Shown here: in pieces, positions 7,495-43,695 of the stretch | Layout of the letters: each line of letters starts with the position of its first letter | Numbering within the stretch: the stretch's first letter is position 1 | Notes under the pieces: generated by a model | What the model saw: the letters and a program-made list of their open reading frames with translations, nothing else | Databases searched by the model: none | What the model was told of the DNA's origin: nothing | Made by a program: the position numbers and the translations under genes | Assembly: GCA_973895155.1 (NCBI GenBank) | Contig: OZ316896.1 | Coordinates: 1,612,001 to 1,676,000 of the forward strand | Direction: 5' to 3' | Source: Marsupella aquatica | Lineage: Eukaryota; Plantae; Marchantiophyta | DNA: 64,000 nucleotides

Positions 7495-7527
7495 AACACG
7501 TGGCAGTATATGATTGGTCCACGTGTC
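7495..7527 (+). promoter_or_regulatory. Conserved G-box/ABRE-like plus inverted CCAAT module ~200 bp inside the E1 left end
   Basis: ACACGTGGCA...GATTGGTCCACGTGTC. Equivalent motifs at the same offset in E2 (~21065-21097) and, reversed, in E3 (~34809-34843). Confidence 0.5.
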
Positions 7528-12860: not shown

Positions 12861-14858
12861 GTGGGCTGCTTTAGGTTAGTCTTTGTTAGAAACCCCATTT
12901 CTGCCACTCCTAGCTTGCTGGTCTGTCTGAGATGTTTAAATAACTTACTTCGGTGATTTCTAATCGAAATCATCATAGTTTTTGAGTCGACGTTCATGCT
13001 CCTTTTGTCTTCTGAAATGTTTGCAGGCCTGTGGGAGGTGGATGTAGAGTCGTTAGAGTGTTTCACAACATGCCCTCTGCCACTGTATTTCAAGTAGACT
13101 CTGAGTCTGGAGAACGAAAACCGGTGTCCTCATATAGTTATAGGAAAGGGGAAACCTTCGCAGATGCCAGACAGAAGTTGGCGGCTCACTTTGATTTTGA
13201 GTTCCAATTCATAGATGTCAATCTATCTAGTAGGATGCGTGAGTCATGGGAGGTAGTATATTCCTTAGAGGATTGTGGGGGAAAAGTGATCATCATCCCC
13301 AAAAACCCTAGGGATGCTGCAAACTTGCTTGTCCAAAGTAAGGCGGTTATGTCGCAACAAGTCCTTGGAAGCAGCAATGCCTCCAATGGGCCTGATATCA
13401 CAATAAGTGATGATCGTGCTCGGGATCGTGCTGGTTCTCCCATACTGGAAGAACCCCCACTTGAACAGTCAACACCAGACTGTGCTGGCCCATTGGAGGA
13501 AGCCCAAGAGGAAGTTGACCCCCAGGTCACTTTGGGGTCGGAGTTAATGACCAATGAATTAAAGAGGACGTGGTCTTCATGTGTAGAAAAGTTTAAGGAT
13601 CATATGGAGTCAATACAATGCGCTCACCACAAGTGGAGGGTGAAAACCTGGGACAAAGACAATGTGCCATGCAGACACATTGAATGTTGCGAGTGTGACA
13701 CTTGCCATGATGGGTCAGCAAAGGGATTGATGGATAAGACATCCATCAATAATGCCTTCACCAACTTCAAAAAGAAGCATCTGATTTCATCAAAGCATGC
13801 CGCTCGTGTGGCATCTAATAGGGGTGAGAGGCTGCACTCTAAGGAGGTTGCACGGAGGGCTCAAGCAAATACATTGACTGATCGAGCCATACTTCAGTAG
13901 CACCTAAAGATTTTGCAAAAGGTTAATGAGTCTCAGACTGTCGGGAGAGAGACTTTTACAGTTTTAGGTGATGTGGAGAAGGAACCCTTGGAGTTACACA
14001 AATTCAAACTTTTGTGCAATTTATGTTCAGAGCACCTTGTGCTCATTCCAAAACAACGGAATTTGGAGCCCAATCTTGAAAGTCATTGCAATAGCATCAG
14101 TCATCTAAATTATGTTGCAAGGAGTCAAATGCCTGCTAGAGGAGATCCTGTTCTGTCAGGACGGCCTGGAAGACCTCGCCAAGTGGATGCAAGGGATGTC
14201 AAACAAAGGACCATCCAAGGCTTTTTAACTCAAACTGAGGCCGAGTGGAGGGCCGTCTTGCAGTTCCTCTCGAATGTCTGCTGAAGAAGAAAGAGGTGGG
14301 CACTTATCTCTGCTGTGTTGGGGTCTTTGGCGTGATGCGGTCCAATATGGTTCAGAAACCAGGCCTATTAAGGGAATCTTAAACGACCAACTTAAAGTTG
14401 AGGGACTTTGGTTTGCAGAGCCCTTGGTCGTAGAAGATGTGTTCTGTGTAACTGGGCAGGAAACTTATCACATTGAGGGTCTCTTTAGGCACAAGCATTG
14501 CAGTAGATTATCAAAACTTGGGGGTGGCTTTAAAGACTTGACATGTGAACATTGTTTTAGTATAAAAGGGGAACCCGACTTTAGGCTCAGGGTGGCTAGA
14601 GAATTCAAAGCCTCTAAGAAAAGAGGAAGCAGGGGGACTGGGAAGGGTCGTAGGTTAGATTACCTCACGGTTCCCGAGGTCCAGCAACAAGAAAAGTGTT
14701 ATAGGAATCGAGTTCTGAGAGAACGAAAGCTACAGAGAATCCTTAGTCATAGATTACTGATGGCTAAGGCCCGTGTCCCACCCATTGGGGAAGTCTGCCT
14801 TAATTACCAGGAACCAAATAAGGCCACAGTGCTGAAGTTTTGTCAATCCATAGTCTTG

Positions 14859-17800
14859 TGTGACACGGGTAACGTGTCACTTAACCGAACCCAGGTCGTA
14901 GATTAGGTCTTATACGGACGTTAGGACCGTAGCCGTAGCGTAGAATAGCACGTATAGCCGTTTGTTGCCATTATGAATAGATTAGGAGTAGGTTAAGATG
15001 ACCGAATGATTACGAGTTCAGGAAGAGGATTATTACGCGCGACCGAGGTACGGTGGCGGTAGCGGAGTAAAAATCAGTTAGAAGAATCACGCTTGGACCG
15101 AGGCGCCAACTTTAGCTCATTATCAATGACCAAAATGGCCTGGCCTTCTCATGCTCGGGCTCATCCTGGCACCTCCATAAGAGAGGAGCCGATGGCGCTG
15201 CGGGCCATTTGCTCATTTCCACCTTTTTGGAATTCGCGGACATTGCCATCCACTCGCCTTTCCGATCGAATCAAGTTGACCTTTACAAGGAGATTATCGA
15301 GGGATAAGAGCGGAATGTGGCGAGATTTAGTCAGGACGAGCGAGGCCTCCACGAGAAAAAGGACCAATCGAGTGGGAACGTGGACTCAACGAACCGGACT
15401 ACGAGGTTAGTATGACCCTTACAGCCTTGGGATTCTAGACCTTGTTTGGCGAGGTAGGTGCTAAGTTCTCCGAGACTTACTGGTACTCTTGTCCCGAGAA
15501 AGCCGCTTACGAACAAAGATACGCAAAGCTGGTGACCAAGGTAGCACTGGTTAATTGCGAAAGGACAGCCATCACCAGGGATTCCAGCTACAACAAGCTG
15601 TGAGACTACATCATCGAACTATATCTCAGCGAGGAAGGGCTTAGATCAGTAGCAAAGGCGATTCTTGAAGTCCCAACGAAGTTCTTTAAGCTGAAGGGCA
15701 GCCAGCGGCTTACTCAAGCGGAGTTCGACAAGATTCCGGGGTACCTAGACCAGCAGATCGCAGCCGAAAAGCGTCAAGAAGACATCAGCAGACAACGGGA
15801 AGCGGCGCGTAATCTTACGTTCCTCGGGGAAAGCTCCAACGCCTTCAACTGGGATATGGCTACCCCGATACCACCAGTGCCTCAGCCGATGACCACCGGC
15901 ATACCATCGAACCGGTCCCAAGTCCGTCCAATGATCAACACAGTGTTCTTCGGGTTCTGAGCGAGTTAGTCCGCAACTCGAACAGCGTTCTCGTAAGCGG
16001 CCAAGGACAACGACGGCCCCCGAATCAACAACGCGAACCAACGCCGCGCCTACACCTGCCCCGACAAACCCCCCGGCCAACCAGACCCGACGGCCCCCGG
16101 ATAACCCAAAGTCCAACTTATTACAGGTAATCCGCGTCCCCGAAGTAGTCTGGATCGCGATCAAGAAACTCGAACACGCGGACTATCTCAAGGAGCATCA
16201 GTTGGAGCAGTTCGCTCACTTGCTATGGAGGCCGTGCGCCGCCGGGCCGAAGGAGATTTGTGAGTTCATCTCCAATTTCGACACTAACGCATCGACCACC
16301 AAGGTTTTGGGGTAGGCCTTATCACTCACGGAGCATCGGTTAACGCAAATCTTCCGCCTGCCAACCGGGCCGGTGCCGGTTGAACTCCGAATTTGGGATA
16401 AGGAGTATACACCGCGGTACTTCAAACCCGAGGGTAAGACGGACAACGGATACAAGCAGGGGTCATGCACCAACTTAATCTGCATGGAGCGTCTTAACTT
16501 CATACGGACTACCCTACACATGATTGAGCCACGATCCGAGATTTCCCTCTGCATGATCGTGCAGGTGGAACAGTACAAACGGCGGAATTGGGCCCAATTC
16601 TTCTACCAAAGATTCTCGGGGGAGCTGAAGCGGGCTCAGGGTGGTATGGCTATTGGGGGGAAGACTTACTTGGGCAGTCATATTGCCATTATCCTCGCCT
16701 GGTACAAGGCACGGCGGGAGGCCAGAGGAAAGAATTGGCCACCTCAGCCCCAACTAATGTCACCCCCACCCCAGAGGAGGCAACCCCGAGCGCGCGGACT
16801 ACCATCCCTCGGGCAAACCCCGAGCCGGAAGCCCCGACTAATACCCCGCCACCTCCTCCTATGGAAATTCCGCCGCCCCCTTCCGTCGAGCCTCCGCTAC
16901 CCGCAATACAACCACCCCCAATCCCTCCACCACCTGAAGAAACCTTCCCCTCCCTAGCGTAGACTACGGAGGAGCTCGTTGCCCCGCCCGAGGAACCACC
17001 GGTACCCGAGAGGATGGAGGACTACCAGATCCATCGTGACTTCATTAACCAGCTCAACCTGGAGGTAGCGCGACTCCAGACCGAGGCCGATGAAGCTGCA
17101 AACGAGGCGGAGGAGGCGGTGCGGGACAACAAGGCCTTGTAGGACCGCGTTACCTTGCTCGTCCTCCAGCGGGGAAAACCTGGGCCCACCTATGATCAAG
17201 GCGGCTCGAGGTCTCGCCCCGACAAGGGGACCAGCCCTGGTCCAACCACAGCACACACGTAAGGGGTGGTTAGCAAAGGGTGGAAGCAGGCGCCGCGCGA
17301 GGCAGTTAAGTCAGCGGCATCTTTTGGTTAGGTGTAACGACAGAATGGCTGTTATTAGGCACCGATTAGCGGCAGTAGGAAGAATTAGGGCCGGATCAGC
17401 CAACGTAGGATGGAGTCCATCAACGGACTAGATTTTTGTAAGTAGGCTTGGCCGCTGCCATCCCGGTCGGCACCCTTGTCGTCGATGGTCAACCAGTCAG
17501 TGCGGCACGACCAGTAGTCAGAAGGTAGTTAGTCAGTAGGTAGTATCCCGGAAGGTAGTATCCTCCAGTTCTCTTCCGCAAACTGTAGTATTTAGGCTTC
17601 CCCTTCCGCTATGGAAGGGGGACAAGGCTTAGTTATCTCAGCAGAAGAAAGGTGAGGCACGGGGAGTCCCGGCCTGAGCAGGGTCAGAGCGCACCAAGGA
17701 GTGAGAGCCAGAGTCGAGCTTGTTGGGCAAGTGCGAGGCGGGGCCTCATAGAGACTGGGCATCGACTGCCGTTGGGCCTGCTGACCCCCTTTGAAGTCGA

Positions 17801-18234
17801 GTCAACCATGTAAACTGATGCTTCGCTGAGTAAATGTAGTCTTTTCCCTCTAATGTTTCCGCAAGTAACTGGTGTTGTGAGTATGCTTTGTCTGGGCAAA
17901 GGCACCATTTTAAGGGACGTACCGGGTGCGGACTAATGGTAGGGATTGCCACCCATTGTATGTCACAAGGTTCTGTCGCGTCGATGGCTTGAAAAGCCCC
18001 AAGCCGGGAGTTAGTCCGAGTCACTAACTGAGGGAGGATTCCAGCGGTGGAAAATAAAAGATACCTATGACTAGTATGAATTGCTTAAGTTTTATACCAG
18101 TAAGTATATCGGCTTAGCCCGACTTAGGGCTAATCGGGGCCACTACCTCCTTGCCCGAACCCTCACCCCTACTGGTGGTCGAGGTCGCGCCATGGCACTA
18201 AACTGGATTTAAGGCCCAGGTTCGGGACGCGACA
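14859..18234 (+). mobile_element. Solo LTR (family A, 3376 bp) carrying a decayed ORF
   Basis: TGTGAC...GCGACA termini; 5-bp TSD TCTTG at 14854-14858 and 18235-18239. Removal restores IVL-AHKRGAF. No gag/pol and no internal LTR pair seen. Confidence 0.85.
15314..17273 (+). pseudogene. Decayed homolog of the 884-aa LTR-encoded protein; ends approximate
   Basis: ORF 16373-16957 (EGKTDNGY..ERLNF..LHMIEPRSEI..WAQFF..IGGKTYLGSHIAIILAWY) matches the 884-aa ORF (EGSVDNGF..ERLEF..LHMMEPRGEI..WASYF..IGGKAYFASHIEIILEWY). Confidence 0.8.
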
Positions 18235-21200
18235 TCTTGGCACACAAAAGGGGTGCCTTTGGAGGGAGAGGTGCCGTGTGGGATATGTTGTCAGACATAG
18301 CTTCGAACCTAAACAAAGAGAAGCAGGGTTACCGATATAAGGCAGGAACAAAGCTTCTCTGCCAAACACTCTTTTTGCATGGTGGGAGGCGCGTTGTTGA
18401 TTGTCTTTCCAGTAATGGAATAGGTCCTAGTTTGAACACCCTTCAACGAGATAGGAGAGGGATGGCTGTGTTCCGTGCAGGAATTCATGCGTCTCAATTC
18501 AAGTTCATCGCCAAAGTGTACTCACAATTAAAGGATCGACTTGGCATATGTGGACCGATTCCCTGTTTTATGGTAGAGGATGAGACTGTAGTGAAAAAAA
18601 CCGTGAGGTAATTACTATCTCACTTCATAACCTTTGGGTTGATGTACCTACTGTTGTATATTTGAATATGTACACCAAAAAGGCAGCAACCTAAAAAGTC
18701 CTTCACCTTATGTTTGCAGATGGCTGCCAAAACATGATACTCTTATTGGGTTTTGTGGGAAGAGAACTGAAGGCCACCAATGTGTAGCAGGCTTGGAGGT
18801 GAAGGTGGGAAAGGGAGAACCTGGGTTTACTGCCATCGTCGATTCATTTGAGAATTTCCGTGTAGGGAACCTAGCAAGGTGTATCATGGTCAATCCATTA
18901 GTTGTAGGGCTTCCTCACTTGGCTGTAATGGGCGATATAACATGTAATAAGTTTGATGCCCCTTGGGTCAGGCGCCAGTGGGACAAAGTGGAATCTCTCT
19001 GGACAACTCATTGCTTGGAATCGGTGGGCCCTCTATTGGGACATGCCAGTGATGGGGATTCACGAAGGAGAAAGCTTATGTTGGAGGATTATAGTGGGAG
19101 AGGGATTGAGGGGCCAAGGCAAAACCTGGGTTGGGAAGGTTGGCAGCTGACTCACTCGATTACGACTACTGCCCAGGCCTCTGGAGGCTATGCTGTAGGA
19201 CTCCATGATTAGGATTATATCCATAATGGGAAGAAGCTAGTCAACCCACTTGATTCAAGTGCCAGGATTTTGAAACTAGGAGCAGGTGTTGCAACCATAA
19301 GTCACTTGATACACTTAGAGGAGTTATATGAGGTGGCTCAGCATGGCTTGAACAAAGAGGACAAACGTCGCAGAGATCGGCAGAATTGGGCAAGTGCACA
19401 ATGACTTTGTAGTCGTAAAGTCAGTAATTCTTTGCGGCTGCTACGAGACAGAGCAGATGCTAGGGTTGAGCTTACTCTTGGGATAGAGGTGTACATTAGG
19501 ATATGTGCAGATTATTTGGACATTTTTCTTAACACTCGGCTCAGTTTGCGCGAGAGGATTGTTCTCTGTGGGAAGGTGGGATTCTTTTTCAGGCTTTGGC
19601 GTCTGTGGTGTTTTCATGGGAACCGCTCAGTTGGGGGTAACACACACCCTATCACCTTCACCCATAGTTGTATTCCCATGCAGACATTCCTTGACATTCA
19701 AATGTCAGCGCATTTTGTTGTTCTTTTGATAATCCAATTCAGGGACAAATTCCAAGATCTACCTGTACCCTTGCATTTGACTGGGTCAGATTCTTGTGAG
19801 CAGTTTTTTTCCAAAGTTGGGGGCATGAGGGGCAATGAGCGAAGCTATGACATATCAGAATTGGTGGAATGTGCTACTAATCTGAACCGGTTGGCTGCAA
19901 TGGATTTGACCAAAGGAATTATGGGTGTGGGGAAGAGTCATAAAAAACACTCAACCATTTGGATGGGACTGCACCCAATAGAAGCTGGGGTTGATGCAAT
20001 AGCAGATCAAGAAAATTATACAGGAATCGAAACAAATGCAGAGGTTATCATTGCTTTGCAGGATGGGTTGGTATTGGCCCAGAGTATTGCAACTGAGTGT
20101 CAAATGAACCCTTCCACATCGGCCAGGGACAAGGTGTGGTGGACTTCACCTTGGACGACTGAGGCAAAAGGGGCTAAGTATGATGGATGGTGTGATGTGA
20201 ATGTTGAGTCATTAGTTAATGTGGATGAAGGTTTGGATGATGAACCACCACCATTAGTACAGCCTGTTGTCCCAGTGGAACAGACTCTTGAGGAGATTGC
20301 CATGTTTTTAGATCCAGAGGTAGTGGATGTTGGCGCTGCAATTGACGTTACCATGGATGCAATGCATCCTGACTTGGTGTATGGTGCCCCTAGACAGGAG
20401 TTTAAACCAACAGTATCTTACAAAGACAGGAGTATCTACAAAAGTACCCTGGTGAGCCAATTAGTGGGCAACCCACACCTTAGTAAGGACCGTCTCACTC
20501 GAGTGAAGCAGAGTATCTATTTCAACAATTTAGTGGATAAACCAAATGTGCGTGAAGGATCTCCATCCATGTTTATGACAGTTGGAAGTGACTGTGGAGT
20601 ATTTTTTGTTGATGACACTCCTCAGGGTAGAACCACTCAAAATACAGAGGCCATAGCTCGAGCAATGAAAGGGAAGGGGCATGCCAAGAAGTCAACCGAT
20701 TCTAAAAGGCCTAGAGGTGAAGCTATCACAGTGACTTCAGTTACAGGAGTGAAATATAAGTGGTGGATTGGACGAGTCCAAAGCATCCACAGGAAAGATG
20801 GGAACAAGATAGGAAGATCAAGGGAAGCATTGGATTTGCTTGATAGGCCTGGTACTGAATCCCCTGGGCCCCCAACGTTATTAATAATGGACCGGACGTG
20901 CGAACGGCCGAAGGGTACATTTAAATCAATTCCAGATTAATTTTTATAATCGACTTATAACCAACAAGACCATATTTTATATGACAATCTCTTTATAACT
21001 ATTCCAAGGCATCCAAAATGCCGGCCAAAATAATTTGCTTGAAGGGGGCCAGTAATATGGCATACACACGTCATGATGAGATTGGTCCATGTGGCACGCC
21101 CTGAGTGGAGTTTAGTGTAACAAATACTTGTGGTGAATAGGATGAGTTATGAAAGTATTTGGAGTTTTGAGGGTTTAGGGTGAAAGGTTTTTGGGGGTAC

Positions 21201-21239
21201 ATTTCTAGGGGGTTTTGGGTGTTTGCAGGGCAAAAGTTC

Positions 21240-21430
21240 AGGGGGAGTACTCAATCCCAAGGGAATGAGCCCTGGAATGAGTCAAAGGTCCGGGGCAGGG
21301 GGAGTAAACAATCCCCAAGGGAATGAGTCGAAGGCCCGGGGCAGGGGCCGGGAATACTCAATCCCCAAGGGAACGAGTCGAAGGCCCGGGGTCAAAGTGA
21401 GTCCAAGGGAGTGTCAAAGTCGGGGTCGAA
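21240..21430 (+). repeat. Degenerate ~55-bp tandem repeats in the E2 5' region
   Basis: Repeated GGGAGTACTCAATCCC(C)AAGGGAATGAGTCGAAGGCCCGGGG-like units. Confidence 0.7.
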
Positions 21431-24400
21431 GGGAATTAGGGCTCAGCTTCAAGCCGCCGGATTTCACATAGTGCTACCAAGTCGAGAGGTTCGGTTTAGG
21501 CTGAGGGAAGTGGAGCTTGCAGGTTGGCTACGGACCTTGGATGAAGGAAGCTATGGGGCCTAAATGAAATGTTGCGGGTGGAGGCCGACACTTGATGCTT
21601 GCGAAAGTGGCGTTTGACGCAAAGCGGGACGTTGCAAGGCTGGGAGGCGTGCACTGGCGGGACCGACTGTGGGAGGCACACCTTTTTTGGAGTTTTGTTT
21701 AGGGGTAACTTTCCTTACACTGCCCACTGTTTACGTAGAATGATCATACTTTCCATTGTTTATGCATGCATACACTTTACTAACTATGAAAGCTCGTAAC
21801 CTACTACCAGCTATTGCCCGAGCTACCGTCGATCTGTAAGAAGGGTGAGGCGCGGGTTGAGGTGTTGTTGTGGCTATTGTTGATCTGCGCTTAGTGCCGT
21901 TTGTCTGCTGGAAGCCCGGCCAGCGGGAAGCCCAGGCATCTGAAAGAGGTCCGACTCCCTCTGCTCACTATCTTACTCGGCTCACTACCTTACTCCGCAT
22001 AGTACGTGATTTCAAATATTTTGGTATGCACTGCACTTCCCGCTCCACTTTCGACTATGGTCAACTCCTCTTTGTTTTGAAATTGCGGCTCACAGCAGGG
22101 CTGAAATGTTGCAGAAAATGAAAGGTGGTATGCCTTGGGTGTTGTGGGAAGCGACATTGTCTATGTAAGGTTTGCTACTGTTGCTATTGGAGCGCAGCCC
22201 CGAGTATGCGTGCAACTGCAGACGGTGTCTCAAGTTGTCTGTAGGAGGCCCACAAATCCTAGCATGCTGTAATGCAAAAAGGTCCAAATCAGTGTCTTGC
22301 CTTTTCACCACCCTGCACACCCTCTGCTCATTGTCGTTGTCTATGCAATTTAGTTTTTCATTGTATCCTGAAGCTTTACAAGCTTTCATGTTGAGTCTGG
22401 TCGTGGCGTTTTCCCGGGCGTTTTGGCAATCCCATGTTAATTGAATGTTGGGCCCGACTGTATCTGTTGCCGCTGCCGTTTGGAATTTGTTGGATATGGT
22501 GCTCTCTGCTGATTCCCACATTGTCGTGCTCAGTGCTGTCATCTTGTTAATGTGGGCTATGGCTTACTGATCCGTAAGTCTACTCGCAAGCAATCCAGAT
22601 AATTTTATGTTCTAATGTGTGATAGGAAATGTGCTGTCTCCTCTTTCCTCTTTGCTTGACTTATTCCTTCGCTTTTGATCTTGTCCGTGTATCTCAATCT
22701 TGGGCAGCTATTTTCATTTACATAGTGACTGTAAAGCTTTGCTAGTTGCTTACATTGTAATGGTATTTTGCTCTCCATTACAGTTGTTCTTCTGACTTGT
22801 TTGATGGCATTTGACTGTCCAATACAGCGATGAGCCAGCTGCGTTGAGTTCTTTCAATTTGATCAGCTGTTGGGAGAGCGTTCGGGACGTTGAATTTGAG
22901 CTGGTGGCCTCCGAATTGTTGAGATCAGTCAGTCTTGGGTGAAATCCAGTGTTTGCGTGAAAAGGTCCGTGCTCTTTGCTCTTGACGTCTCTGTTTGACT
23001 TGGACCCTCAATTTGTTTCACGGGGATTGCAGCTTTCGTCTTTCATAGAGTCCAAGTCTTTCTCGATTACATTACTGTGTACTTGTAGATGTCTTCCAAT
23101 CGGAGGTACGCTCTGTGTTTCACAGGGATTACAACTTTCGTCTTTCACAGAATCCAAGTCTTTCTCGATTACAAGGCTTCTTGTTTAATGTGGGTGCCAA
23201 TGCCTGTGCAGTTGTAGATGTGTTTGGTTTTCTAAATGCTAATATTTTTTGTGATTGCAGAGTTTTTTGTTTGGGTGAGCGCTGTCCACCTCAAAAGACT
23301 ACAAGCGATTGCAACAATCAGGTCATTTTCAAACTAATCATTTCTTTTGCACAATGTCATAGTGATTTTCAAATCTATTGGTATATCATTTGCTCTTGTT
23401 CAATCAGAGTAGCAAAGCATGGTGAACTCCTATTTGTTGCTCCATCGTGGCCTGCATCGTGGTTAAATTTGTGCTTCAAATGTGTGCAGAAGTTGTCGCT
23501 CTTGCTGTCCGGGCATTTTACTTGTCAAATGTGCGGCTACTGCTGCGGAAGTCCCTGTGGAAGGTGTCTGCCATAGGCCAGTGGAAGGTGTCTGCTTTTG
23601 GGTAGTTTGCCTCTCAGTTCTCCTTTGTGTCCATTGTACTAGTCCAGGAATAATTGTGGGGTAGAAATGTCGTTGTTTGATCGAGAACCACAATTAAGAA
23701 CTTTGGTATATGAGATGGGAAGCGATGGACGTAGCAAAGCTGAGCTGAGCTGAGAGTAGATAGAACAATTTTGCATCACGGCAAAGCGATGAAGAAGATT
23801 GATCATGGCCAATTTTTCCGATCATGGCTCTAGACAACTGACATGATTTTGTCCAATTCTCACATCCGATGACACAAGCAAACCAGTATTACAGAGTAGT
23901 AAGTGGCTTTGCACTGCACAGTGAGTTGTAAAAAGGGAAGTATCGACCAAAACCCCACTCAAAGATTTAGATGAGGTCATGAATGAGGAGTCGAATACAA
24001 AGCTGAGCTGCTGTGCGCGGCTACCCCGGCGCGTTGAGGAGCTGAGGGATTTCTTGTGTTTTGGGGTTTCGTGTTTTGGTTTTTCTTTGTTGAACGAGAT
24101 TCGGCTTGCAGTCTATGCAATCATATGAGGATTTTGGTGGTCCGGTTTGAAGGTGTAACAATTCTGCCATCTCGTTCTCCTTTTTGGCATTGACTTCAAA
24201 CACAGCTTCTGCTGCTTTGCCTACATTCCCCTTCTCCCTTCCCTTGTTTCCCAAGCCAAGATAGTAATTCACGATTGATCGCAGCTCTAATCCTCATTTC
24301 GGTGTCATATTTTGTGTTGCTGGTTTGTTTACTTTATCTTGTTTGTCCGATACCAAGTTGCAGTACACTTGTGAGATTTTCTGTGTGTCCAATAAGACCT

Positions 24401-25314
24401 TTCTCTTAACCCCTCAATCTCAGCCATTCCATCACTCAACTCCTTTAATCTCATCTGGATCGATCCAAGCGAGAGGCATCAATTTCATGCTCCTCTGCTA
24501 CTTCTGCGCCTTGTTCCTGCTCCTTTCACAGCATTTGTAGGGGCAGGGACTAGATGGATTTTGAGCAATTCGAACAAGCAGCGGATTGCATTATTCAAAT
24601 AACCCATTGAAATATCCTATACAGATTGCAATATTAAAAAACCCACTTCATTTGCTCATTGCAATAGTATTGCGTAACTTTATTTTATCACCGAATGTAG
24701 CAATTCTCTTAGTAGGTCATTACTGAAATGCGGGCTGAAATGGTAACAATTTCAATTGCCCATGATAATTGTGTTGCATTACTATAATGAGACGAAATTG
24801 AATTGCTATTTACTTAATGCCTTTTCTCTTTGCTTCTCACTCTTTGTAGGAGGGAGTGATCATTGAGACTGTATTACTTATGCCCCTATGCCCCACCTCC
24901 AAAAGGAAACATGTCCCACACACTGAGTACGTTGTAAGGTAAGATTTGGGGGATCATTGATGTTCCTGTATATGGCAATGCCTTCCTTTTCCTGGCATTA
25001 CCCTTCTAAATAGTCCCACTGCAAACTATTTTTAAAGATATTCCTTAAACTCATTTTTTGTTGTCATTTACACAGATACTCATACACCTCTGAAGTCAGG
25101 AAGGACAGACGCCCCCAAGTGTTGGGTTCCACCATCACAAGGTATCCAATCAATTTTGCATTTTGTACTATTTCCTTCTGGATTACCGTATCTGTAATGT
25201 CTCCACAGACGCTAATTGACAGGCATTGTGTGTTGCTGAGGTAAGTTTTCAGCTTTTCATTTCCAGGTCCTGTTTGCAATTTCCTTCCCTGCTATTGCAA
25301 GTGTTGGTTTGCAG

Positions 25315-25823
25315 GTTCCTCAAGTTCATTGGGACCCTGGGGAACTAATGCCCCCAGAGGAGACTTGCTGGAAGTGATGACCCAGCAGTCTAGCGCCCCT
25401 TGAATGAGAGAACAGGTTGCCTGGGAGGGGGGGGGGGCCTTGGAGTTGATTGCCAATGGCATTCCTGATTAGAGCCCAAAGTGTTAGGATTTGGTTGGTC
25501 CGGGATTGGCAAAGAATCCAAATTCTTGGGGCATTTAGGGTCGATAGGGACTAAGTCCAAGTACACCGTGTTCGAGTGGAGGGAATTGGAGTGTGGGCAA
25601 CCCGACTGTACATGCTAAGCACACATGAGCATGTTACAGATCCCAATCCCTCTAGTGCTTACATTGACATTGGAATCCTTGTCAGCAAAGGGGCCACCCT
25701 TCCCACCCGAGATTTCTCGGAGAAAACTGACTTGGATCTGTAGAAGCCAATCACCAAGAGCAATGGCCGGGATGGGGCAAGGCTCTCTTGGGGGTTGGTC
25801 CAATGGATGTGGTCTCCCAAGCA
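25315..25823 (+). ncRNA. Conserved structured RNA element (copy 2), probable 5'-UTR exon upstream of the E2 transposase
   Basis: Bounded by ttgcag| and |gtgggc. Perfect stems ACATGCT/AGCATGT, TACAGATCC/GGATCTGTA, CATTGGA/TCCAATG and CCAAGAG/CTCTTGG; covaries with copy 1. Confidence 0.78.
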
Positions 25824-25925
25824 GTGGGCTGCTGTAGATGTTCTGTACTAGGGTATTTGATTGGGAAATGCTTGAATGTGACATGTCCATTGTATTTCTT
25901 GCAGGTCTGAATCTGTGATTTTTTC

Positions 25926-28900
25926 ATGCCGCCTGTGCCTGTATTTCTCGTTGACCATGAGTCAGGGACCAGAAAACACTCTGGGACCATTAGTTGTCTC
26001 CCTGGATGGACCTTGGCGGATGCTAGGCAGAAAATGGTGGATTTGGAACTTTGGGACTTTGATTTTGATTTTATTGATAGCGTGGGAGGTTGTAGATTGC
26101 GTGCTGCTTGGGAAAAAGGCAACCTCATTGATGATTGTGATGGAAAGATTGTCATCATCCCAAAAATACAGTCTCTGCCCATCCAGAAAGTGGGGGTAGA
26201 TGTTGGAAGCAGCAATGCCTCCAATGCTGAGGCTCTGAGTAAGAGCGTTAGTGACGGAGAGTGGCACACTGAAGTTAGGGTAGAACCTGAGATACAGTGG
26301 GGACAACAGGACTTGCCTCTACCTGTTTCACCCCCAACTTCACCTCTCCCTAATGTACCTGTGGATGATGATCCACATGTGAGTTTCCAGTCAACAACTA
26401 TGTCAAATGATCTGGCCAAGCTCTGGGTGTCCAGTGTTGACAAGTTGAAGGAGCATATGGTCTTCATAAAGTGTGAGGACCACAAGTGGAGCGTCAAAAC
26501 TTGGGACAATGGTGGTGTTCCATGTGGTAAGATAGAGTGTTGCGAGTGCAACACTAATATATCTGGATCATCTAAGTATGTTATGGATAGGGTGTCTGTC
26601 ACTAATTGTTTCACAAATTTCAAACAGAAGCATTTGATCACCCCAAAGCATGCCAAAAATGTGGCACATAATAGGGGGCAGAGAGTAGACTCTGTTGAGA
26701 TCAGTCGAAGGGCTGCAGCTTCCTCCTTGAACGATCGTGCAACTCTTGACATGCATGTTCAGATAGTTGAAAGGCTCAATGAATCTGAGCCTGTGTCCAA
26801 ACCTACCTTCTACATTGTAGGTGATGTTCAGAAGGAGCCTGTGGAGAAGTTAGAGCGGTTCAGAGTGGGGTGCCATTTTTGCTCTGACGTGTTCACTTTG
26901 GTACCCAAGCAACGTAATCTGGAGGTTAATCTGAAATCCCATTGCATCTCTGCAAATCATCTATCAGCAGTGGCTAGGAGTTTGAAGCCACCACCTGGTG
27001 CACCAATACTGTCAGGAAGGTCAGGCAGACCTCCCAAGGATGATAAGAGGGATGTTCGCCAAAGAACCATTAATGGGTTCTTAACCCGGCAGGCCAGAGA
27101 TATTGCTTCCAGCAGCCGGTCAGGAGGGACAGCTGGAGGGAGTGGTTCAGGAGGGAGTGGTTACAGTGGAGGTTCAGGCCATTCAGGGGATGTGACAGGA
27201 GATCCAGGTAAACCCCACCCTTGGTCATTGTTGTGTTGGGGATTGTGGCGGAACTCAGTTCAATATGGTGCAGTAATCAGGCCTATCAAGGATATCCTAT
27301 TAGATCAGCCAAAGGTTGATGGAGCATGGTACGCAGAGTCAGGGGTAAAGGCAGAGGTGTGGTGTCTTTTAGGCCAAGAATCTTGTTTGATAGAAGGACT
27401 GTTCAGGCACGTGAACTGTAGTAGAGCATCACGGCTTCTTGGTGGTTTTCAAGATCTGACTTGTGAAGAATGTTACAGTATTGCAAGGATGGGTGACTTC
27501 CGATTAAGAGCCTTTAGAGAGGACATTGCAGTAGAGAAAAGAGGTACTCGAGGAACCGGTAAGGGTAGACGGTTGGCATATCTCACAATTCCTGAGATTC
27601 AAGAACAAGCCAAAACTTACAAGAGAAACATTTCGTCTCTCAGAAAATGTCTCAGAGCTCAGCAACACCGCCTGTGCATGCTGGGGGCCCGAGTCCCCAC
27701 TTTGAGAGATCTTTGCAAAGAGTCTGGAAGTAGGAAAGACATGTACAAGTTTTGCAATGACATAGTCTTGGCTCACCAGCGTGGTGCATTTGGTGGGAGA
27801 GAGGCCCTATGGGACTTGTTGCGAGATGTAGCTGCAAATCTTAATAGGAAGAAAGAAGGAAACACCTTTCGGCCTGGCACTAAACTTCTTTCCCAGATAT
27901 TGTTCCAACAAGGTGGCAGGCGTGTGGTGGACTGCTTGCAAAGTAATGCATTAGGCCCTAGTCTGAACACCCTTCAACGGGACAGGAGAGCCATGGCTGT
28001 ATTTAGGCCTGGTTTGCATGCTGACCAGTTCAAGTTTGTTGCTGCTGTATACTCTCAACTAAAGCAGAGGATGGGGATCACAGGTCCCGTGCCATGCTAT
28101 TTGGCAGAAGATGAGACCTGTCTTAAGCGGACAGTCAGGTGATTTCATTCCCCTGGACAACATCCTACAGTCTGTAGTAAATTTTTGGCTGTTATCCCTC
28201 TCCTCAATAGGTCTGTGGTTGACCACTATTGTGGATGGCTGTGTTGCAGATGGCAACCAAAACATGACACCTTATTGGGGTTTTGTGGGTTGAAAGAGGA
28301 TCACCAGTGTGTGGTTGGCTTGACAATAAAGGTTGGAGCAAGAGAGGAGGGTTTCAGCAAAATCACTGATACCTTTGAGAATTACAAAATTGGAAACCAG
28401 GCCAGATGTATAGTAGTAAATCCTCTTGCAGAAAGATTTCCTAAATTTTGCATGGTAGCCATGAGTACATGCGGTAAGTTTACTGCAGATTTTGTCAATC
28501 AACAATGGAAGTCCACAGACACTTTGTGGGCTAAATATTGTCTAGACTCAGTTGGTCCTCTCTTGGGTCATGCTAGTGATGGAGATGCACAAAGGAGAAA
28601 GCTGATGCTAGAAGACTACACTGGTCAAAGCTCATATCAAGGGCAAAGACAGAATTTGAGATGGGAAGGTTGGCTATTGAGCCACTCATTCACTACCAAT
28701 GGACGTCATACACATGCTGTTGGTTTACATGATCAGGATTACATTCATAATGGAAAGAAGTTAATAAACCCACTTGATTCTGCTGCCAGAACTTTGAAGC
28801 TGGGAACAGAGGTGGCTGGAATCAGTAACTTGGACACTCTCCAACGTTTATATAGCAACTTGGATCATGGGTTGAACAAAGGTGATGTTACACGGAATGA

Positions 28901-30659
28901 TAGACAGAATTGGGCCAGTGCACAACGATTATGTAGTAGAAAAGTTGTGAAGGCACTAAGAATGCTTCGTGAAAGGAAAGATGCAAGAGTTGAGCGAACT
29001 CTGGGGACTGAGATGTATCTCACAATATGTGGTGATTACTTGGATATCTTTATGAATCCTTGTCTCACCTTGAGAGAGCGGGTTGTTCTCTGTGCCAAAG
29101 TTAGTTTCTTTTTTCGCCTTTGGCGATTATGGTGTTTTCATGGAAATCATAGTGTTGGAGGTAACACGACAGCAATCAATTTTACTGTGAGTTGTGTCCC
29201 TATGCAGACATTTCTTGATATTCAGATGTCTGTGCACTTTGTGGTACTTCTAATTATCCAATTCAGGGATAATTTCAGACATTTGCCAAATGTGCCATTG
29301 CATTTGACAGGATCTGATGCATGTGAACAGTTTTTCTCCAAAGTAGGAGGAATGAAAGGGAATGAGCGTAGTTATGATTTCTCTGAGTTGATTGACTGTG
29401 CAACATCGTTGAATAGGTTGGCTGCAATGGATCTCAGCAAAGGGATCAGAGGGGCTGGAAAAAGTCACAAGAAGCATTGCAATATTTGGATAAAATTGCA
29501 TCCAATACCGGTACAAGTTGGTACTTCTGTTAATCCTGTAGACTACACAGGTATTGAAACCAATGAGGAAGTTGTGGTAGCTCTGAAAGAAGGGTTACTT
29601 TTAGCCCAGACTGTAGGAATCGAGTTGCAGATGAATCCATCTACATCTTGTAGGGATAAAGTATGGTGGGAATCACCTTGGATTACTGAAAAAAAAGGGT
29701 CCAAGTTTGGAGGATGGTGTGATGTTAAGGTGGAGGATCTTGCACCTGTTGATAGTGATGATGAAGAATCAGGCGGGGAGATCAGGCAAATTGCAGCTAA
29801 TGTAACTATCCCAACACTTCCAACTGATATGGCAATGGCAGAAAGTAGTGAGATCATTGAAGATAGTGAAAGGCCAAGCATTGCAATAGTAGGGGATCAT
29901 TGTTCAGCTGTTATGTCTGAAATGCATTCAGACTTGGTGTATGGACAACCTGTTCTTGACATCAGACCAACTGTGAGTTTTGATGGTCGGACTATATACA
30001 AGAGCACATTGGTAAGCCAACTAGTTGGTAACCCCAATGTAAGTAAAGATCGTTTGACTAGAGTGAAACAGAGCTTGTACTTCAACAATTTAGTTGATGC
30101 ACCCAAAGATCGAGCAGGAGCAGTCACCATGTTCATGACTGTGGGTAGTGATTGTGGAGTTCTCTTTGCTGATACAACAGTACAGACTCGGGCCACAAGA
30201 GCCACTGAGGCTATACAAAAAGCCATGAAAGGGAAAAGAGCAAGGAAAGAATGTGGGACAACAAATGGATCTTCTGCTCCCAATCCAAAAAAGCCAAGGG
30301 GAGAACCTGTGAACGTTACCACAGTACCTGATACCCTTAAGTACACTTGGTGGATAGGGAGGGTACAATGCATCCAACGAAAATATCAGGGTCGGGTGAT
30401 GGGTAGAACAAGACAATCAGTGGATTTACTTGATAGGCCTGGCGGTGAAGAAGCTGTAAGAGTTCGTTTTGAATGGTTTTCAAGGATTGGAAATAGTAAG
30501 CACAGATTTGCTTACAATGTTTGTGATCCTCAGTGGATCGATTTGGATTGTGTGATATCAAACGTGACACTATCAGTGAATCCCACAACTCCAAATGTTT
30601 TTCATTTGCATCCCGCTGATGCAAATTTGCTGGATGATTTTGCTAAAGCCCATAAGTGA
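25926..30659 (+). CDS. ~1540-aa P-element-superfamily-like DDE transposase, join(25926..28138,28250..30659)
   Basis: GT-AG intron 28139-28249 joins the 738-aa and 824-aa ORFs in frame. Motifs LAEDET (D1), ASDGD (D2), QDYIHNGKKLIN, DRQNWASAQRLCS and GSDACEQFFS (E) parallel the P-transposase motifs FDEM, CDQG, DxxHLxKxxRN, KMxVxxAxQ and QDxLENFF. Confidence 0.85.
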
Positions 30660-33136
30660 TTGATACCACAGAAGGGTAAATGGTTATATTCTGAGACTTC
30701 AGCCATGCAAGGAGACAAGATTTTTTCTAAGGCAAGTTCTTAAGATCCTGTTTGCTTTTGTGAACAATTTGATATCCCATTTGATATGACATAGTAAAAC
30801 ATATGCTCATTAGGCTCACATATTACTCCACATAATAGTTTAATTTGGACAAATCATTAATGTTTTTGATGTAATTTTTTTTATTGTGTTCACTCAGGAT
30901 CTTTTGAAGATGGAAGACAAGAGGAGGACATATAAGTTGAGAATTTTGCAAGAGTGTTCTCTTAGTTCAGATAGAAGTTCTGTATGCACTAAACCCTAAA
31001 TGTGTGCCCGGCCTCTTAGTTCAGAACTTTTGCAAACACTCTTACATGTTTATAGCAAAATGTTTTCTAGAAATAGTGCTTTTATAAGATTATTAGAAAA
31101 TAGTTGTATAAGTACTTTTACATATATGCCCTTTATAGACAATAGGTAGATTTGTAAGCACTGCTTCATGTGCTAAATCATAATGAAGCACTCTTATATG
31201 TGCTAGAAACACTGTCAAAGTTAAAGCACTATTACATGTGCTAGAACAGAGTGATTCATTGTTATATGTGCTAAAGTTGAGTCTTCTTCTCCATTCCAAC
31301 ACAATTTTTTTTATATAGATACCTATTTTTCTATGGTATACCTTTAATGAGTTTTGTATATTTTTTAATATTTTTCAAAAATTTATAATATTTTAAGACC
31401 TTTTTAAATTTGATTAATGGTAGATTTATAATTTTTGCAAGGGGTAAATAAATTCTCTAAAATTAAGTTTTTAAGAATAACAAGAGATAAATCTATCGGT
31501 GACCAAAAATAATAAGGGGTATGTGATAAGGGGCTGTACGCACGTATACCCCTTACCAATACAAAGGCTGGGGGCCCAGGGACTGAATCATGTTGGGAAG
31601 TGAGGTTCAATTGGTTTACTCCAATCGGGGCAACTAGGTGTAAGTTTAAGTATGATATGTGCGATCCTAGCAGCATTCCGTTGGAGGCTATCATTCAACA
31701 GTGAGCTTTACTGTAGATCCATTGTACCCAAAAATCTTCATATTACATCCTGATGATGTAATAGCTCTTGACGATTTTGTAAAGAATAGAATAGTTTAAT
31801 TCATTTTCGGTAAGCACTTACCTTTCATACTTCTATCCGTTTGTATTATTATAGTTAGTCTGTTCTGTACATTTGAATGACATGTAGCTAGTGATATTTA
31901 TGAGCCTCTTACTCAAGTACATATTATCCATATGAGTGCTATTGCTATTGATATGTGTTATGGTGATCTATTGTTGGGTCAGGTAAATCCAAATCATAGC
32001 GTGCAACATTGTACCAGCAGAGTTGGTGCAGGGGTCTTAGGTTGTTGTGAAATCATGGGATCATCACGATTTGTCATGAGAAAGGTCCACATTAGGAGAG
32101 CTTACCCTCCTGTGCGGCCTTCAGTACATAGCAGAAGGCAGCCTATGATACTCCGAGACCTTAATGCAAGAATGAAGAGGACATCCGCCTCTGATCCTGG
32201 GATGAACTCAGTCAAGGAGGAAGTAGAAGTGCAGCTTGGTGATAATTCAGTGAAGAGCTCGACGAAGGGGAGCCGAATGCAGGGCCTCAATGGCAGTCTG
32301 GGCATGAGTTGCTGTGGTGATGATGTTTGTTTCTCAAGTGATCCTGTGAAGCCTGAGCAGGCGGCGGGGCAGGCGGCTGAATCCTGTCCAAAAATGAGTG
32401 CTGATGAAGTTGAGGAGTCCAATATTATGGCAGCAGGCGTGCCTGCTGCTTTTCTTGATTACATATTTTGGCCTGTATTGGGGCCTGTACATTATTATTC
32501 TATTCATGAAGCTGATGATTAGTGTTTTGATTATTGTTCTGTGCCTATCAATGTGCATAGGTTCCATGCCTCTTGGTGTAGCACCTGCCTAGCTCCAGTG
32601 TTCCTGAGGGGATTGCAATGGAGCTCTTAGCTATCCAACCAGTATTATAGGTAGTAGTATAGGTAATAACAAAAGTCCTCCATATATGAGGAAGTCATCA
32701 ATAACACTTTTGTTATTGCCACAAGGTTGTATCCTAGTGGCAAAAAGTATGCTACAGTTAATAAAAACCCTACTCCGGGCCCTACTCTCAATACTTCAAT
32801 CATGCGTTTGATGTACGGTGGCAATTTTTTTTACTAATGAATGAAGGGTGTTTTAAATTCATTTTTTCACTAAATTATAAGAATCCAAAGGGCTCAAATT
32901 ATTCAGTGAAAACATAAATTTATAACTAACAAGGGAAATATGAAAAGTCCAAAAAATTATAACAAGGGGTACTAGGGGGAGGCTTGATCTCAGGGGGGTT
33001 CACTTAATTTACTAGGAGTGAGGGCCCAGGGGATCGAGAAAAAGACAAGATTCTAGGAGAGGGTGAGGTAGAGGATTAGGCGGCTATGGAAGAGGTTCAA
33101 GAGGTTCTAGAGGTCCTTGTGGTCCTGGTGTGGATG

Positions 33137-33419
33137 CTCGGGGGTTAACTTAGTGTATATTTTGGGGTACCACATGCGATCCTAGCCTAATACAATCACA
33201 CCTATTTCATAATGGGAATATTCCAAAAATATTCTCTATTTTCAATATTAATGACCTATTTTACTTTATAAAAGGTATATATAAGAGAATATTCTACAAA
33301 TATGAGTTTATAAGACCTTTTGCTTCCTGTGCTTTTTAAAAATTTAGCTAATTTCTACAAAAAATACCTATTTTGGATCGCACTTGGTTCCTAAGATTTT
33401 TAATAGTCAACCCCCCAAG
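33137..33419 (+). mobile_element. ~283-bp MITE (copy 1)
   Basis: Termini CTCGGGGGTTAAC...GTCAACCCCCCAAG; 8-bp TSD TGTGGATG at 33129-33136 and 33420-33427. Confidence 0.8.
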
Positions 33420-33968
33420 TGTGGATGTCGTGACACCGACATTTTTTGTGGGGGTACATAGAACAGATGTTCATTTGCCGGATTTTTTAACCCCACCCAA
33501 GGGAGGAGTGCACTGCAGTAGCACCATCAGAAACAGGTCCATATATGTTTTTTGTCAAAGCAACAGTAGTACTAGAGCAGTGGACATTGTACAATCCTAT
33601 ACGCAGTGTGCCTTCACATGTGCATTTGTTTCATGGTATGAGGAGTTCATCATGGCAAAGTTTCACAAGGAAGGGGATACGTCCTTTTTATCACAGAAAT
33701 GAGTTTCACACTGAAAGTCATTTTATCTTACCAATTCTCTAGTCCATGCTTTTGAGCATCCACTTCATGTTCATCCAGGCAAGCTGAGCAATGACACTAT
33801 CAGTGTCCTAGTTTTTTCAGTACCCATTTCAGTTTTGCATGGAGAGGATTATGACACTTCCTTTAAGGTTGCTTGGTTTGAAGACCCTGACACAAGGTGG
33901 AAGGAATTTTGTGAAAGCAATTTCTTTCATCCAAATGATGCCACTGTACATGAGTTTGATGTGGTGAT

Positions 33969-35043
33969 CCCTGGGCCCTTACTCCGTGTATATTAATGGA
34001 ACCGGCCTGTGAACGCCCCTCCCTTCCAAACCCCTTCAGTACTATTTTTTGCCCTTTTAAAAAGCTCTTATTAGTATTAATACATTACTTTTGGGTCATT
34101 AAGAAAGCCCTTTAGGCTATTATAATCTTCATCAAAATGACATTAAATATGCTCTTCAGGTGTTATAAAAATTCTATCAAAGAGATTCTAAGTCAAACAG
34201 ATTGGAATAAACATTTCACATTATCAAAAGCAAAAATAGGAACAACATATTCTTTATGTACACACTTCCTCGCAAGAAGGTAGGAGTCAAGGCATTTAAG
34301 AGTCAAACAAACTCATACAAGTATCCAAATTAAGTTGTAAACATCCTACGCTGTCATCTATGAAAACCGTAAGTCCACATTGCACTTAAGTTTGTCCCAT
34401 AGTTTGTTGAGCATATTCATCATCGTTTACAGGAAAGTTATCCTTTGAGTCTAAAGCATTGGAAAACTTATTACATTTAAACCAATTCTTTGATCACTAG
34501 AAGTGATAAATATACATCGAGGTACATAAGTGACTCTGGATTGAGACTCTCTCTCTATCACTTGTGGCATCATAGAATCCCCATCTGACGCAACACGCAT
34601 TGAACAACGGTGTCTACTTGACCTCCTCCTTCTTTGGGGGCCCTACAAGGCCATATATACCCCTACACCGTTTGATATAGAGCATCAAAGAGATCGACGG
34701 CAGACCATTTTGGTCATCCATAAATGGTACACGAGACCCCCTAAAGGCAAAATTTCCCCTATCCCCCAAAAATTCAAATGTGTTTGCACACCCCAAACCA
34801 AGGATGTAATGACATGTGGATGAATGAGTATTGACGTGTGGCGGCCCTATATGCTTTACCCTTACATACAACTACTCGAACCCTATTTTTTAGATCACCT
34901 TGGTTCATTATAACATGGAACCAAATAAAACAAAGGGTTGTTACATTATAAGCGATTATAACTATTATTCAAAAAAAGGATTTAAAAACCCCTTGAGTTG
35001 TTCGCACGGGGGGTCCCATATTAGTTAAGCTAAGGGCCCAGGG
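33969..35043 (-). mobile_element. E3: non-autonomous 1075-bp member of the CCCTGGGCCC family, inverted relative to E1/E2
   Basis: 13-bp TIR CCCTGGGCCCTTA; 8-bp TSD GTGGTGAT at 33961-33968 and 35044-35051. The left-end motif CGTGCGAAC is found reversed at its right end. Confidence 0.92.
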
Positions 35044-35330
35044 GTGGTGATAGGCCCTAGTTGTGTTCCACGTGGAGTTGGGACTAGAATTGAGGCTCTT
35101 GCTATTGAAGGCCGAAGACTAACACAGATTTGCTTTGCTTCACTGAGGTCGAGGACTTGACTCCATCATTATGCTGTGTGTCTATTATGAGAAGTTCGTG
35201 ACACTTGAGGTAATCAAGCTATCACTTTCTAGTTTACATTGTATTGTGACCTGACAGTGACTTAGACGGTTTGTAATGAATTTCTAACTGTGGAATTTTG
35301 AGTGTTATTTTCTCATGTTAACTTTTTGTC

Positions 35331-35617
35331 TTCGGGGGGTTGACTATCAAAAATCTTAGGAATCACGTGCGATCCAAAATAGGTATTTTTGACAGATTTT
35401 AACTAAATTTTTTTAAAGCGTAGGAGGCAAAAGAAGGTATTATAAACTCATGTTTTTAGAATATTCTTTAATATATACCCTTTATAAAGTAAAATAGGTT
35501 ATTAATATTGAAAATAGAGAATACTCTTGGAATATTTTCTTTATAAAATAGGTCTATTAATATTAGGCTAGGATCGCACGTGGTACCCCAAAATATACAC
35601 TTAGTTAACCCCCCAAT
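35331..35617 (-). mobile_element. ~287-bp MITE (copy 2, inverted relative to copy 1)
   Basis: Reverse-complement homolog of 33137-33419 with its own 8-bp TSD TTTTTGTC at 35323-35330 and 35618-35625. Confidence 0.8.
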
Positions 35618-37291: not shown

Positions 37292-38068
37292 TGTGGTACC
37301 TACTCTGGTAATAGTACCTAGTGTAAGTGTATTGTAGTTGTGTCAGTAGTAAACAATGGGGACGCAGTCTCATCTATATGTATCCTGGGCTATTCAATGT
37401 AAACGAACACATTTATTAATCAAGGGGTACCTAATCTGGCAATAGTAGTTGACAAGTTCTGAAGGTACCCAGTGGGTACCCAATCTGGTAATAGTAATTG
37501 ACAAGTAAAGTGGGTACCCACTATGGGAATAGTAGTTGACAAGTACCCAGTGGGTACCTACTCTGGTAATAGTACCTAGTGTAAGTGCATTGTAGTTTTG
37601 TCATTAGTAAACAATGGCGACACAGTCTCATCTATATGTATCCTGGGCTATTCAAAGTAAACGAACACATTAATCAGGGGGTACCCAACATGGTAATAAT
37701 AGTTGACAAGTACCGAACTCAAGGTTCCCAGTGCAAGACACAGTAGTTATCACTAAGAAACAACGGGTAGTAGAAGTATATACCACATGACTGTGACTGT
37801 GACTCTCTTCCACATGGTACTCCACCCCCATCCTTCTTTTTCGCCCTCACCCGTGAATTCGATTCCCGCCCTCGAAGTCATGGTCTACGGGCTTCAGCCT
37901 ACTAAGTAGCCTCTGAATCAAAGCTTCCCAATGCGCTTTATTAGTAAGATGAGATAATAATACCCTCGTTGATAAGAGTACGCTCATTGATCAAAGTACT
38001 CTCATTGATCAAAGTACAATATTTGATAAACGAATCCTCATTGATAAGAGTATCCTCACTGATATGAG
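37292..38068 (+). repeat. Left arm of an ~800-bp inverted repeat built from short tandem units
   Basis: Reverse complement of 45603-46391. Units include GTACCCAGTGGGTAC, GGTAATAGTAGTTGACAAGTA and GAGTACCCTCACTGATA. Confidence 0.85.
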
Positions 38069-38648
38069 TACCCTCATATCCTCACTGATATGAGTACCCT
38101 CACTGATAAATGTACCCATCTGAGTTTCATTAACCTAAATAACCCATGTATTCAATCTATTCACACTGCATATCTTCGTTGTGGTTCCATGGTACCAGTC
38201 GAATTCCAAGTTAATATTACATGTCAAACACTATCTGGGTTTGATTAACCCATCTGAGTTTCATTAACCTAAATAACCCAGTGGCAATCTAACCCGCAAA
38301 ACTACCACATGTCATGAAAGCAATCAGAACAACAACTAAAAGGCCTATGTTATCAAAGAACTACACTCAGGATATTTGTATGAAAGATTTTGATAATATG
38401 GAAATAATGGGAACATAATGGTTCAAATTAAATAATTTATCCACACTGCACATTAGAATCCTTTATGCTATCAAAATAACAAAATGGTATCAATATGGAA
38501 GCTTTATTCTGATACTTGAATTCTATCATCGACATGTTCTGTTCCTCACTAATTAATGACAATTTTAATTTAGTTCTAAAACTTCTTAGTAGATTAAGCT
38601 GGAAGACAATTCAAACACGAATTCTGACCTGTTGAAGAAAAAACTCGG

Positions 38649-39389: not shown

Positions 39390-39394
39390 GTGCC

Positions 39395-39962: not shown

Positions 39963-40157
39963 GAAGGTAGTAACGAAAGAAGGGGTTTCCAACAAAGGTC
40001 ATGGCGATGGCGCAATGATGAAAGTAGTGTCGGATGCGGGATGGGGTCAAGATTATGGAAGAAAAATGAGAGGTCAATTAACTATAGAGATGATATGATG
40101 ATGGCATCGGTAGTGAGTGCAACGAAGGCAACAACGATTCGAAGATGGAACTCGAAT

Positions 40158-43650: not shown

Positions 43651-43695
43651 AAAGGGAGTCATTGATTCGTACAAAGATTCGAAGATGGAACTCGA

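Follow-up and report, generated by a model that had tools for sequence, protein, structure and literature searches.

E2, at positions 20862–31581 on the forward strand of a 64-kb stretch of Marsupella aquatica DNA (contig OZ316896.1; this whole stretch of 64,000 nucleotides (nt) is referred to as the window), is a P-like transposon of a non-seed plant, intact and of recent insertion. It is probably a variant of this type whose leader RNA, not described before, is probably structured; a conserved, non-coding segment of 530 nt (25315–25838, forward strand) is found directly upstream of its intact DDE transposase gene. It is quite possible, if short of probable, that this segment is a folded 5′-leader exon of the transposase mRNA that acts in cis, is likely to govern translation, and most probably does so by recruiting ribosomes.

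In the same window, E1 (7295–33031, forward strand) is an older relative, now broken, that has the same ends, and E2 is nested in the 3′ part of its transposase gene. Apart from the transposase and the element termini, blastn comparison of E2 with E1 gives matches only at 25385–25476 and 25626–25837, and the remaining leader sequence does not align. Over the segment, whose E1 copy occupies 12304–12874 (forward strand), 378 of 497 aligned bases (76%) are identical, as against 112 of 317 fourfold sites (35%). A coding role for the segment is ruled out by stops and by the pattern of insertions and deletions (indels), of which 20 out of 25 break the frame and five are multiples of three. A 333-amino-acid (aa) antisense open reading frame (ORF) has no Pfam match, and among 17 leader and 3′ ORFs there is one sub-threshold Pfam match and none above threshold. 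The segment ends less than 100 nt before the transposase start codon and contains many upstream ATGs (12 in E2, 15 in E1). Its observed/expected CpG ratio (0.25–0.33) equals that of the coding region (0.28–0.30), as is expected of a long-time resident.

The segment matches no family in Rfam. No Rfam match reaches the gathering score anywhere in the window; a search of the segment with expectation values (E) up to 10 gave best values of 1.1 and 2.2, far under the gathering scores, and no internal ribosome entry site (IRES), ribozyme, intron, small nuclear RNA or riboswitch. There is no tRNA and no long hairpin in the segment, and RNA motif scans found no match to it in viral contigs, prokaryote genomes, plasmids or phages. 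Complementarity between the segment and the element ends or target is at most 7–8 nt long, which is no more than chance predicts in all 12 comparisons (P ≥ 0.14); stem 2 and the terminal repeat are alike over 5–8 nt, likewise at chance level. When sequencing reads were assessed at 80% likeness, the bin at 25471–25837 had the highest contig depth of 28 inner bins in all four runs (323, 2153, 15366 and 4411); contig depth is no copy number, and the peak hints at retention of the segment in many diverged copies.

Comparison of E1 and E2 supports a shared RNA fold. The consensus fold energy is −110.6; of the paired positions, 105 are the same in both copies, 11 are changed on one side and eight on both sides, and none is broken. 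None of 200 column shuffles reached this energy, in a control that does not preserve dinucleotides. When one copy was kept constant and the substitutions were redistributed over neighbouring columns, the consensus energy was reached in 0 of 60 trials in each direction. Under the strictest control, in which the same columns receive new letters, the energy of domain 1 was reached by 9 and 2 of 300 trials, and that of domain 4 by 11 and 6 of 300. Domain 1 (25325–25403, forward strand), a predicted three-way junction, is the best supported; its 27 pairs comprise 21 unchanged, three one-side and three both-side changes, with none broken. Domain 4 (25668–25835, forward strand) is a multibranch region of 40 pairs (34 the same, four one-side, two both-side), and contains an invariant run of 22 nt at 25762–25783. 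In sequencing run X4, two unphased loose ends would add one more complementary version, the third, of the helix that closes domain 4. The sense strand folds better than its complement in all four domains (−110.6 versus −82.5 overall), G–U pairs occur in the sense strand, and stems are kept while loops differ in length and letters. The G-rich predicted loop of 25762–25783 could pair with upstream invariant ATCCC, CCCACCC or TTGCC, a possible pseudoknot.

The leader of E2 is 5064 nt long and contains 96 ATGs. Splice-like sites in it were scored with a rough home-made matrix, with a cut-off of 5 for acceptors; acceptor-like sites number nine on the sense strand versus one on the antisense strand in E2, and 16 versus one in E1. 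This strong sense bias in both leaders suggests a spliced transcript that begins at the left end. An acceptor-like site precedes the segment in E2, while the acceptor just before the E1 segment scored under the cut-off; a donor-like site follows the segment in E1, at 12875. Between segment and gene in E2, a short gap (25839–25904, forward strand) has a strong acceptor-like site at its end, and acceptor-like sites stand 21 nt (E2) and 43 nt (E1) ahead of the start codons. Conservation of the start codon among relatives means that the leader does not extend the protein at its N-terminus. The long upstream part (20906–25314, forward strand), which cannot be aligned to E1, has splice-like sites on the sense strand, short candidate exons and no Pfam domain over the cut-off. 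In the E1 leader, three to four duplicated intron–exon-like units (families D13 and D19) are seen at 9833–10979. The CpG ratio of the leaders at 20862–25315 and 7295–12302 is 0.59–0.60, near that of a host PPR-like gene (0.54), and these upstream leaders may be later captures.

These features can be assembled into a scheme for expression. Transcription would start from the left end of E2, and the long leader would be spliced such that the segment becomes the last large leader exon, joined shortly before the start codon. Plain scanning through the 12–15 AUGs of the segment would be poor, which favours a cis-acting translation element: the folded segment would bring ribosomes past these AUGs, by internal or otherwise non-scanning initiation. 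The RNA would then serve one intron-bearing subclade as an expression module, standing outside the cutting machinery. The transposase fingers, in turn, would read a DNA motif near the element ends, in place of the THAP domain of P elements.

Several points weigh against this reading, in addition to the dinucleotide limit of the column shuffles. The fold rests on two full sequences, E1 and E2, and the domain boundaries were chosen after the alignment had been viewed. Domains 2 and 3 do not pass the strictest control (37, 93, 117 and 27 of 300). Single copies fold ordinarily, with z values of −1.39 and −0.26 (11 and 41 of 100 shuffles are as stable), and a structure derived from one copy is mostly not significant on the other, with 11–15 confident pairs in common; 97 of 200 shuffles reach eight both-side changes. 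No donor that scores 4 or more follows the segment in E2. Leaders of two relatives described below, L006 and L007, contain 16 and 11 ATGs without the segment, and the segment has no similarity to any Rfam IRES. Ribosome recruitment, repression and splicing control are not told apart by the sequence. On balance, support for a structured RNA is moderate, and the shared fold is in all likelihood real.

An earlier note on this window, made from its letters alone, had described much of this arrangement. A conserved non-coding segment does lie directly upstream of an intact DDE transposase gene, and it matches no Rfam family; the many AUGs within it stand as noted, as do the leader of about 5 kb with splice-like signals and the same order of segment and transposase in a diverged second element. 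The word 'structured' is supported by the comparison of E1 and E2 and not by the stability of either copy alone. The intron-like gap has its acceptor-like site and lacks a clear E2 donor. The suggestion of an IRES or a switch remains the best reading of an AUG-rich segment that adjoins the start, with the initiation step itself proposed from sequence.

The ends of E2 are intact, again as noted before. A perfect 13-bp terminal inverted repeat (20862–20874, forward strand, and 31569–31581, reverse strand; blastn self-comparison) is flanked by two copies of an 8-bp target duplication, ACTGAATC, at 20854–20861 and 31582–31589. The ends CCCTGGGCCC are common to E1, E2 and a third element, E3, and each of the three has a perfect 8-bp duplication (GATCGAGA for E1, GTGGTGAT for E3). 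E3 (33969–35043) is a non-coding, non-autonomous element of 1075 bp, which transposed without the conserved segment; it is inserted in a further inverted-repeat element (33140–35613) with 189-nt arms that are 87% alike. E1 is disrupted by stops, by a long terminal repeat (LTR) element and by the insertion of E2, downstream of which its transposase frame picks up again. The LTR-type insertion at 14862–18236 (TG...CA ends, gag-like ORF) splits the E1 transposase, and its ORF resembles by eye an 884-aa ORF at 51216–53870. About 1.2 kb of E1 (31800–33031) extends past its transposase and contains a 196-aa ORF without a Pfam match. A junction that skips exactly E2 is present in all four sequencing runs, and may represent an empty allele or other E1-type copies. 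Close to the ends lies a subterminal motif, GTGCGAAC (20898–20905 in E2, forward strand), a candidate DNA site for the transposase. With up to two mismatches it occurs at position 36–39 in nine of ten ends (E1, E2, E3, L006 and L007), against a background of 0.003 per position.

The transposase is encoded in two exons, 25926–28138 and 28250–30659 (forward strand), joined over a 111-nt GT–AG intron (28139–28249) that has the same position in E1 and is absent from L006 and L007; the resulting 1540-aa protein has zero internal stops, and the earlier claim of an intact enzyme thus holds. What went unrecognised then is its likeness to P elements. Exon 1 encodes a ubiquitin-like domain (aa 1–84), two C2H2 fingers, a helical region and an AEDET motif that would supply the first catalytic Asp; exon 2 encodes an RNase H core with helical insertion, the HASDGD and GSDACE motifs and a C-terminal domain. 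The three acidic motifs are conserved in relatives and are the putative catalytic triad. Pfam and PDB sequence searches of the E2 protein gave nothing useful. Because the E2 core is split by the intron, the intron-less core of L007 was folded as a stand-in (53% identical to E2 over the compared 400 aa; modelled with 62 sequences; predicted local distance difference test score 90). Its best matches are Drosophila P transposase structures (Foldseek E 2e-10). Against PDB 6p5a the model gives a Z score of 24.7 (root-mean-square deviation (rmsd) 3.4, 402 residues aligned), the next family reaching 10.7; model residues 41–538 align to residues 140–569 of the P transposase chain, a span that covers the insertion region. 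Weak matches to TNP-like_RNaseH_N are found in three of the 62 relatives. The model of aa 1–84 is ubiquitin-like with a middling Z score of 7.8, and this domain is conserved in relatives. Such an N-terminal domain (25926–26177) is unusual for a transposase. A THAP domain has no Pfam match in E2; both fingers are C2H2, and aa 1–84 are ubiquitin-like instead. On the strength of these models, the enzyme is predicted to work like P transposase without THAP. The closest named proteins are those of Calypogeia fissa (48% over exon 1), Riccia and Adiantum, that is, of liverworts and a fern.

Both fingers have Cx2C...Hx5H spacing, a feature of U1, matrin and JAZ fingers that is kept in most relatives: finger 1 (26538–26651, forward strand) is Cx2Cx27Hx5H (C205/C208/H236/H242) and finger 2 (26871–26960, forward strand) is Cx2Cx19Hx5H (C316/C319/H339/H345). 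The spacing given in the earlier note is therefore present; the class assigned from it, U1/matrin-like, fares less well. In a scan of 12 proteins, none passed the threshold for the U1, JAZ or BED profiles; the best touches, in one protein each, were zf-C2H2_jaz at 11.2 bits (cut-off 22.6) and zf-U1 at 8 bits (cut-off 22), and zf-BED matched in 0 of the 12. Both fingers, Hx5H included, fit the BED signature Cx2CxnHx3-5[H/C] as given in the available part of PMC3606216. The closest named atlas clusters are zf-C2H2_12 and zf-BED (scores 0.81–0.83; zf-BED 0.81–0.82), which are leads only. Fold searches with a 737-aa N-terminal model returned no U1, matrin or BED finger among the matches, which does not exclude these classes, since the fingers were never folded alone. 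The simpler proposal is that the fingers bind DNA, given that a subterminal DNA motif is conserved and a THAP domain is lacking; they may bind this motif in place of THAP.

Relatives were sought in a metagenome scan, which yielded 15 relative loci out of 437 candidates; a left end is recognisable in only two, L006 and L007. L007 is a complete element (192–6287) with a perfect 8-bp duplication, an uninterrupted ORF of about 1490 aa and a 683-nt leader; a Cys of finger 2 is changed to Asp. In L006, the inverted ends lie at 308 and 9065 and no duplication flanks them; the element keeps both fingers, and its leader is 882 nt long. In none of the 15 loci was the segment RNA found by blastn, nhmmer or two covariance models with filters off, the latter being built on two sequences and of limited reach, so that a far-diverged version could be missed. 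A sliding-window scan for stability picked out nothing in the leaders of L006 and L007; nor did it flag the E1 segment itself, so that test cannot show absence. In a tree of 46 of 83 sequences (those excluded covered less than 330 aa of the core), E1, E2 and P0001–P0004 form one clade (support 1.0), separate from L006 and L007; within this subclade the segment is readable in E1 and E2 only. Given the lack of a match in L006 and L007 and their separate position, the RNA looks specific to the intron-bearing subclade. Protein scans confirmed 0 of 78 candidates in viral contigs and 0 of 43 in prokaryote genomes. Upstream of one relative's ORF, L002:1–1900 looks by eye like an antisense insertion of the long interspersed nuclear element type.

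The distribution in relatives bears on the proposal that the transposase binds the RNA through its fingers, whether the RNA serves as a scaffold, as a cofactor or as an operator through which the transposase regulates its own mRNA. Both fingers end in an HxxS/GxxH-like pattern; HxxSxxH is the pattern of U1 and JAZ fingers, and the faint profile touches point the same way. The model of aa 149–247 resembles ribosome hibernation factors, which bind RNA (Z score 7.0, middling; rmsd 3.6; 87 aligned), and P elements regulate themselves through pre-mRNA splicing, according to the available part of PMC7776569. The fingers nevertheless persist in relatives without an RNA match, of which L007 is complete with a perfect duplication; the atlas leads are DNA-binding fingers of transposases; the subterminal motif needs a reader where THAP is absent; and complementarity of the RNA to ends or target is at chance. 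Binding of the RNA by the fingers is unlikely. The system of RNA plus RNA-binding fingers put forward in the earlier note does not hold up in L006 and L007, which keep the fingers (finger 2 of L007 altered) and have leaders without an RNA match. That the subclade acquired a 530-nt RNA bound via the finger region, such that a DDE transposase would act as a ribonucleoprotein whose own RNA sets its output or assembly, is very doubtful.

Alternatively, the transposon may carry a separate non-coding RNA: a captured host RNA that Rfam lacks, a source of small RNAs or of anti-silencing activity, or a repeat also found by itself. The depth peak at 25471–25837 in all four runs could mean copies without the ORF, although it is equally expected if the RNA outlasts coding DNA among subfamilies. 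Captured DNA would also show a host-like CpG ratio such as that of the upstream leader (0.59–0.60), whereas the segment matches the transposase gene in this respect and not the leader. As its place and order are identical in E1 and E2, and long hairpin, tRNA and Rfam matches are lacking, an independent RNA appears improbable.

Conservation might instead act at the level of DNA (promoter, enhancer or protein sites), or reflect exchange between elements, with the fold incidental. Single-copy folding is unremarkable, both-side changes are not over control, and most conserved positions are invariant and hence uninformative on pairing, all of which would be expected here. The preference for the sense strand with its G–U pairs, the retention of stems while loops vary, and the passing of strict controls by domains 1 and 4 speak for RNA; recent exchange is opposed by 25 indels and 24% divergence. 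This explanation is quite unlikely. It is very unlikely that the segment acts as a ribozyme or processing element, cutting the long leader or making it circular so that the mRNA gains a new 5′ end: a multi-domain fold with invariant predicted loops of 11–22 nt would suit catalytic or pseudoknotted RNAs, and the lariat-capping ribozyme sits ahead of homing endonuclease genes, but no convincing Rfam family appears at E up to 10, and the stretch that resembles group II domain V (25757–25788) is paired otherwise, as a both-side change indicates.

Among known systems, the P-element superfamily (Drosophila P, PDB 6p5a; THAP9) is alike in its 8-bp duplication, present at E1, E2, E3 and L007, in its inverted repeats with a subterminal motif (in E2 a candidate transposase site only), and, as modelled, in a split RNase H core with helical insertion. 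In the available part of PMC7776569, P elements are described with 8-bp duplications and with THAP, helix-turn-helix, RNase H and GTP-binding domains, THAP being restricted to animals. E2 differs in its identity of 12–14%, its 1540 aa, ends that begin CCC, and a 5-kb leader with the structured segment; unlike Drosophila P and THAP9, it has two C2H2 fingers together with a ubiquitin-like domain. In hAT and Mutator transposases, the BED and related C2H2 fingers share the signature (PMC3606216, in part) and the N-terminal position, whereas E2 has no zf-BED match, a long Cys–His spacing and a P-type core. Viral IRES and pararetrovirus shunt leaders are also several hundred nucleotides long, rich in upstream AUGs and directly ahead of an ORF; the shunt requires a short 5′-proximal upstream ORF before one large stem-loop, as far as the accessible text of PMC5902531 goes. 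The segment, by contrast, has several local domains and no Rfam match, and sits in a DNA transposon. IS110 bridge RNA (PMC11208160, in part) and the omega RNA of TnpB, IscB and Fanzor (PMC10530073, in part) likewise place a structured RNA beside a protein gene in a mobile element. E2 has instead a DDE transposase, with no RuvC nuclease found and no end or target complementarity, and its segment RNA is not detected in complete relatives.

The window as a whole is plant nuclear DNA, with PPR-like and lectin-like ORFs and LTR elements (labels by reading). In a large foldback-like element at 37295–46392, inverted subterminal repeats form long arrays. At 47083–59753 lies an LTR retrotransposon whose direct repeats, 11.5 kb apart, are 95–100% alike; it has a pol-like ORF at 54304–56586.

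In the available part of a land-plant review, six superfamilies with terminal inverted repeats are listed, and P is mentioned for Drosophila alone (PMC9033089). The literature searched, outside which lay most subscription papers and the repeat databases, yielded no account of the E2 family, nor any cut-and-paste DDE transposon of a eukaryote described with a large structured RNA; repeat databases may already have an entry for the family. To our knowledge, it is rare to find a large structured RNA that Rfam does not cover. If the segment does drive internal initiation, it would be a nuclear-encoded plant element for this step, both testable and reusable. Of separate interest is the occurrence in a non-seed plant of a P-like transposon in which a ubiquitin-like domain and C2H2 fingers replace THAP.

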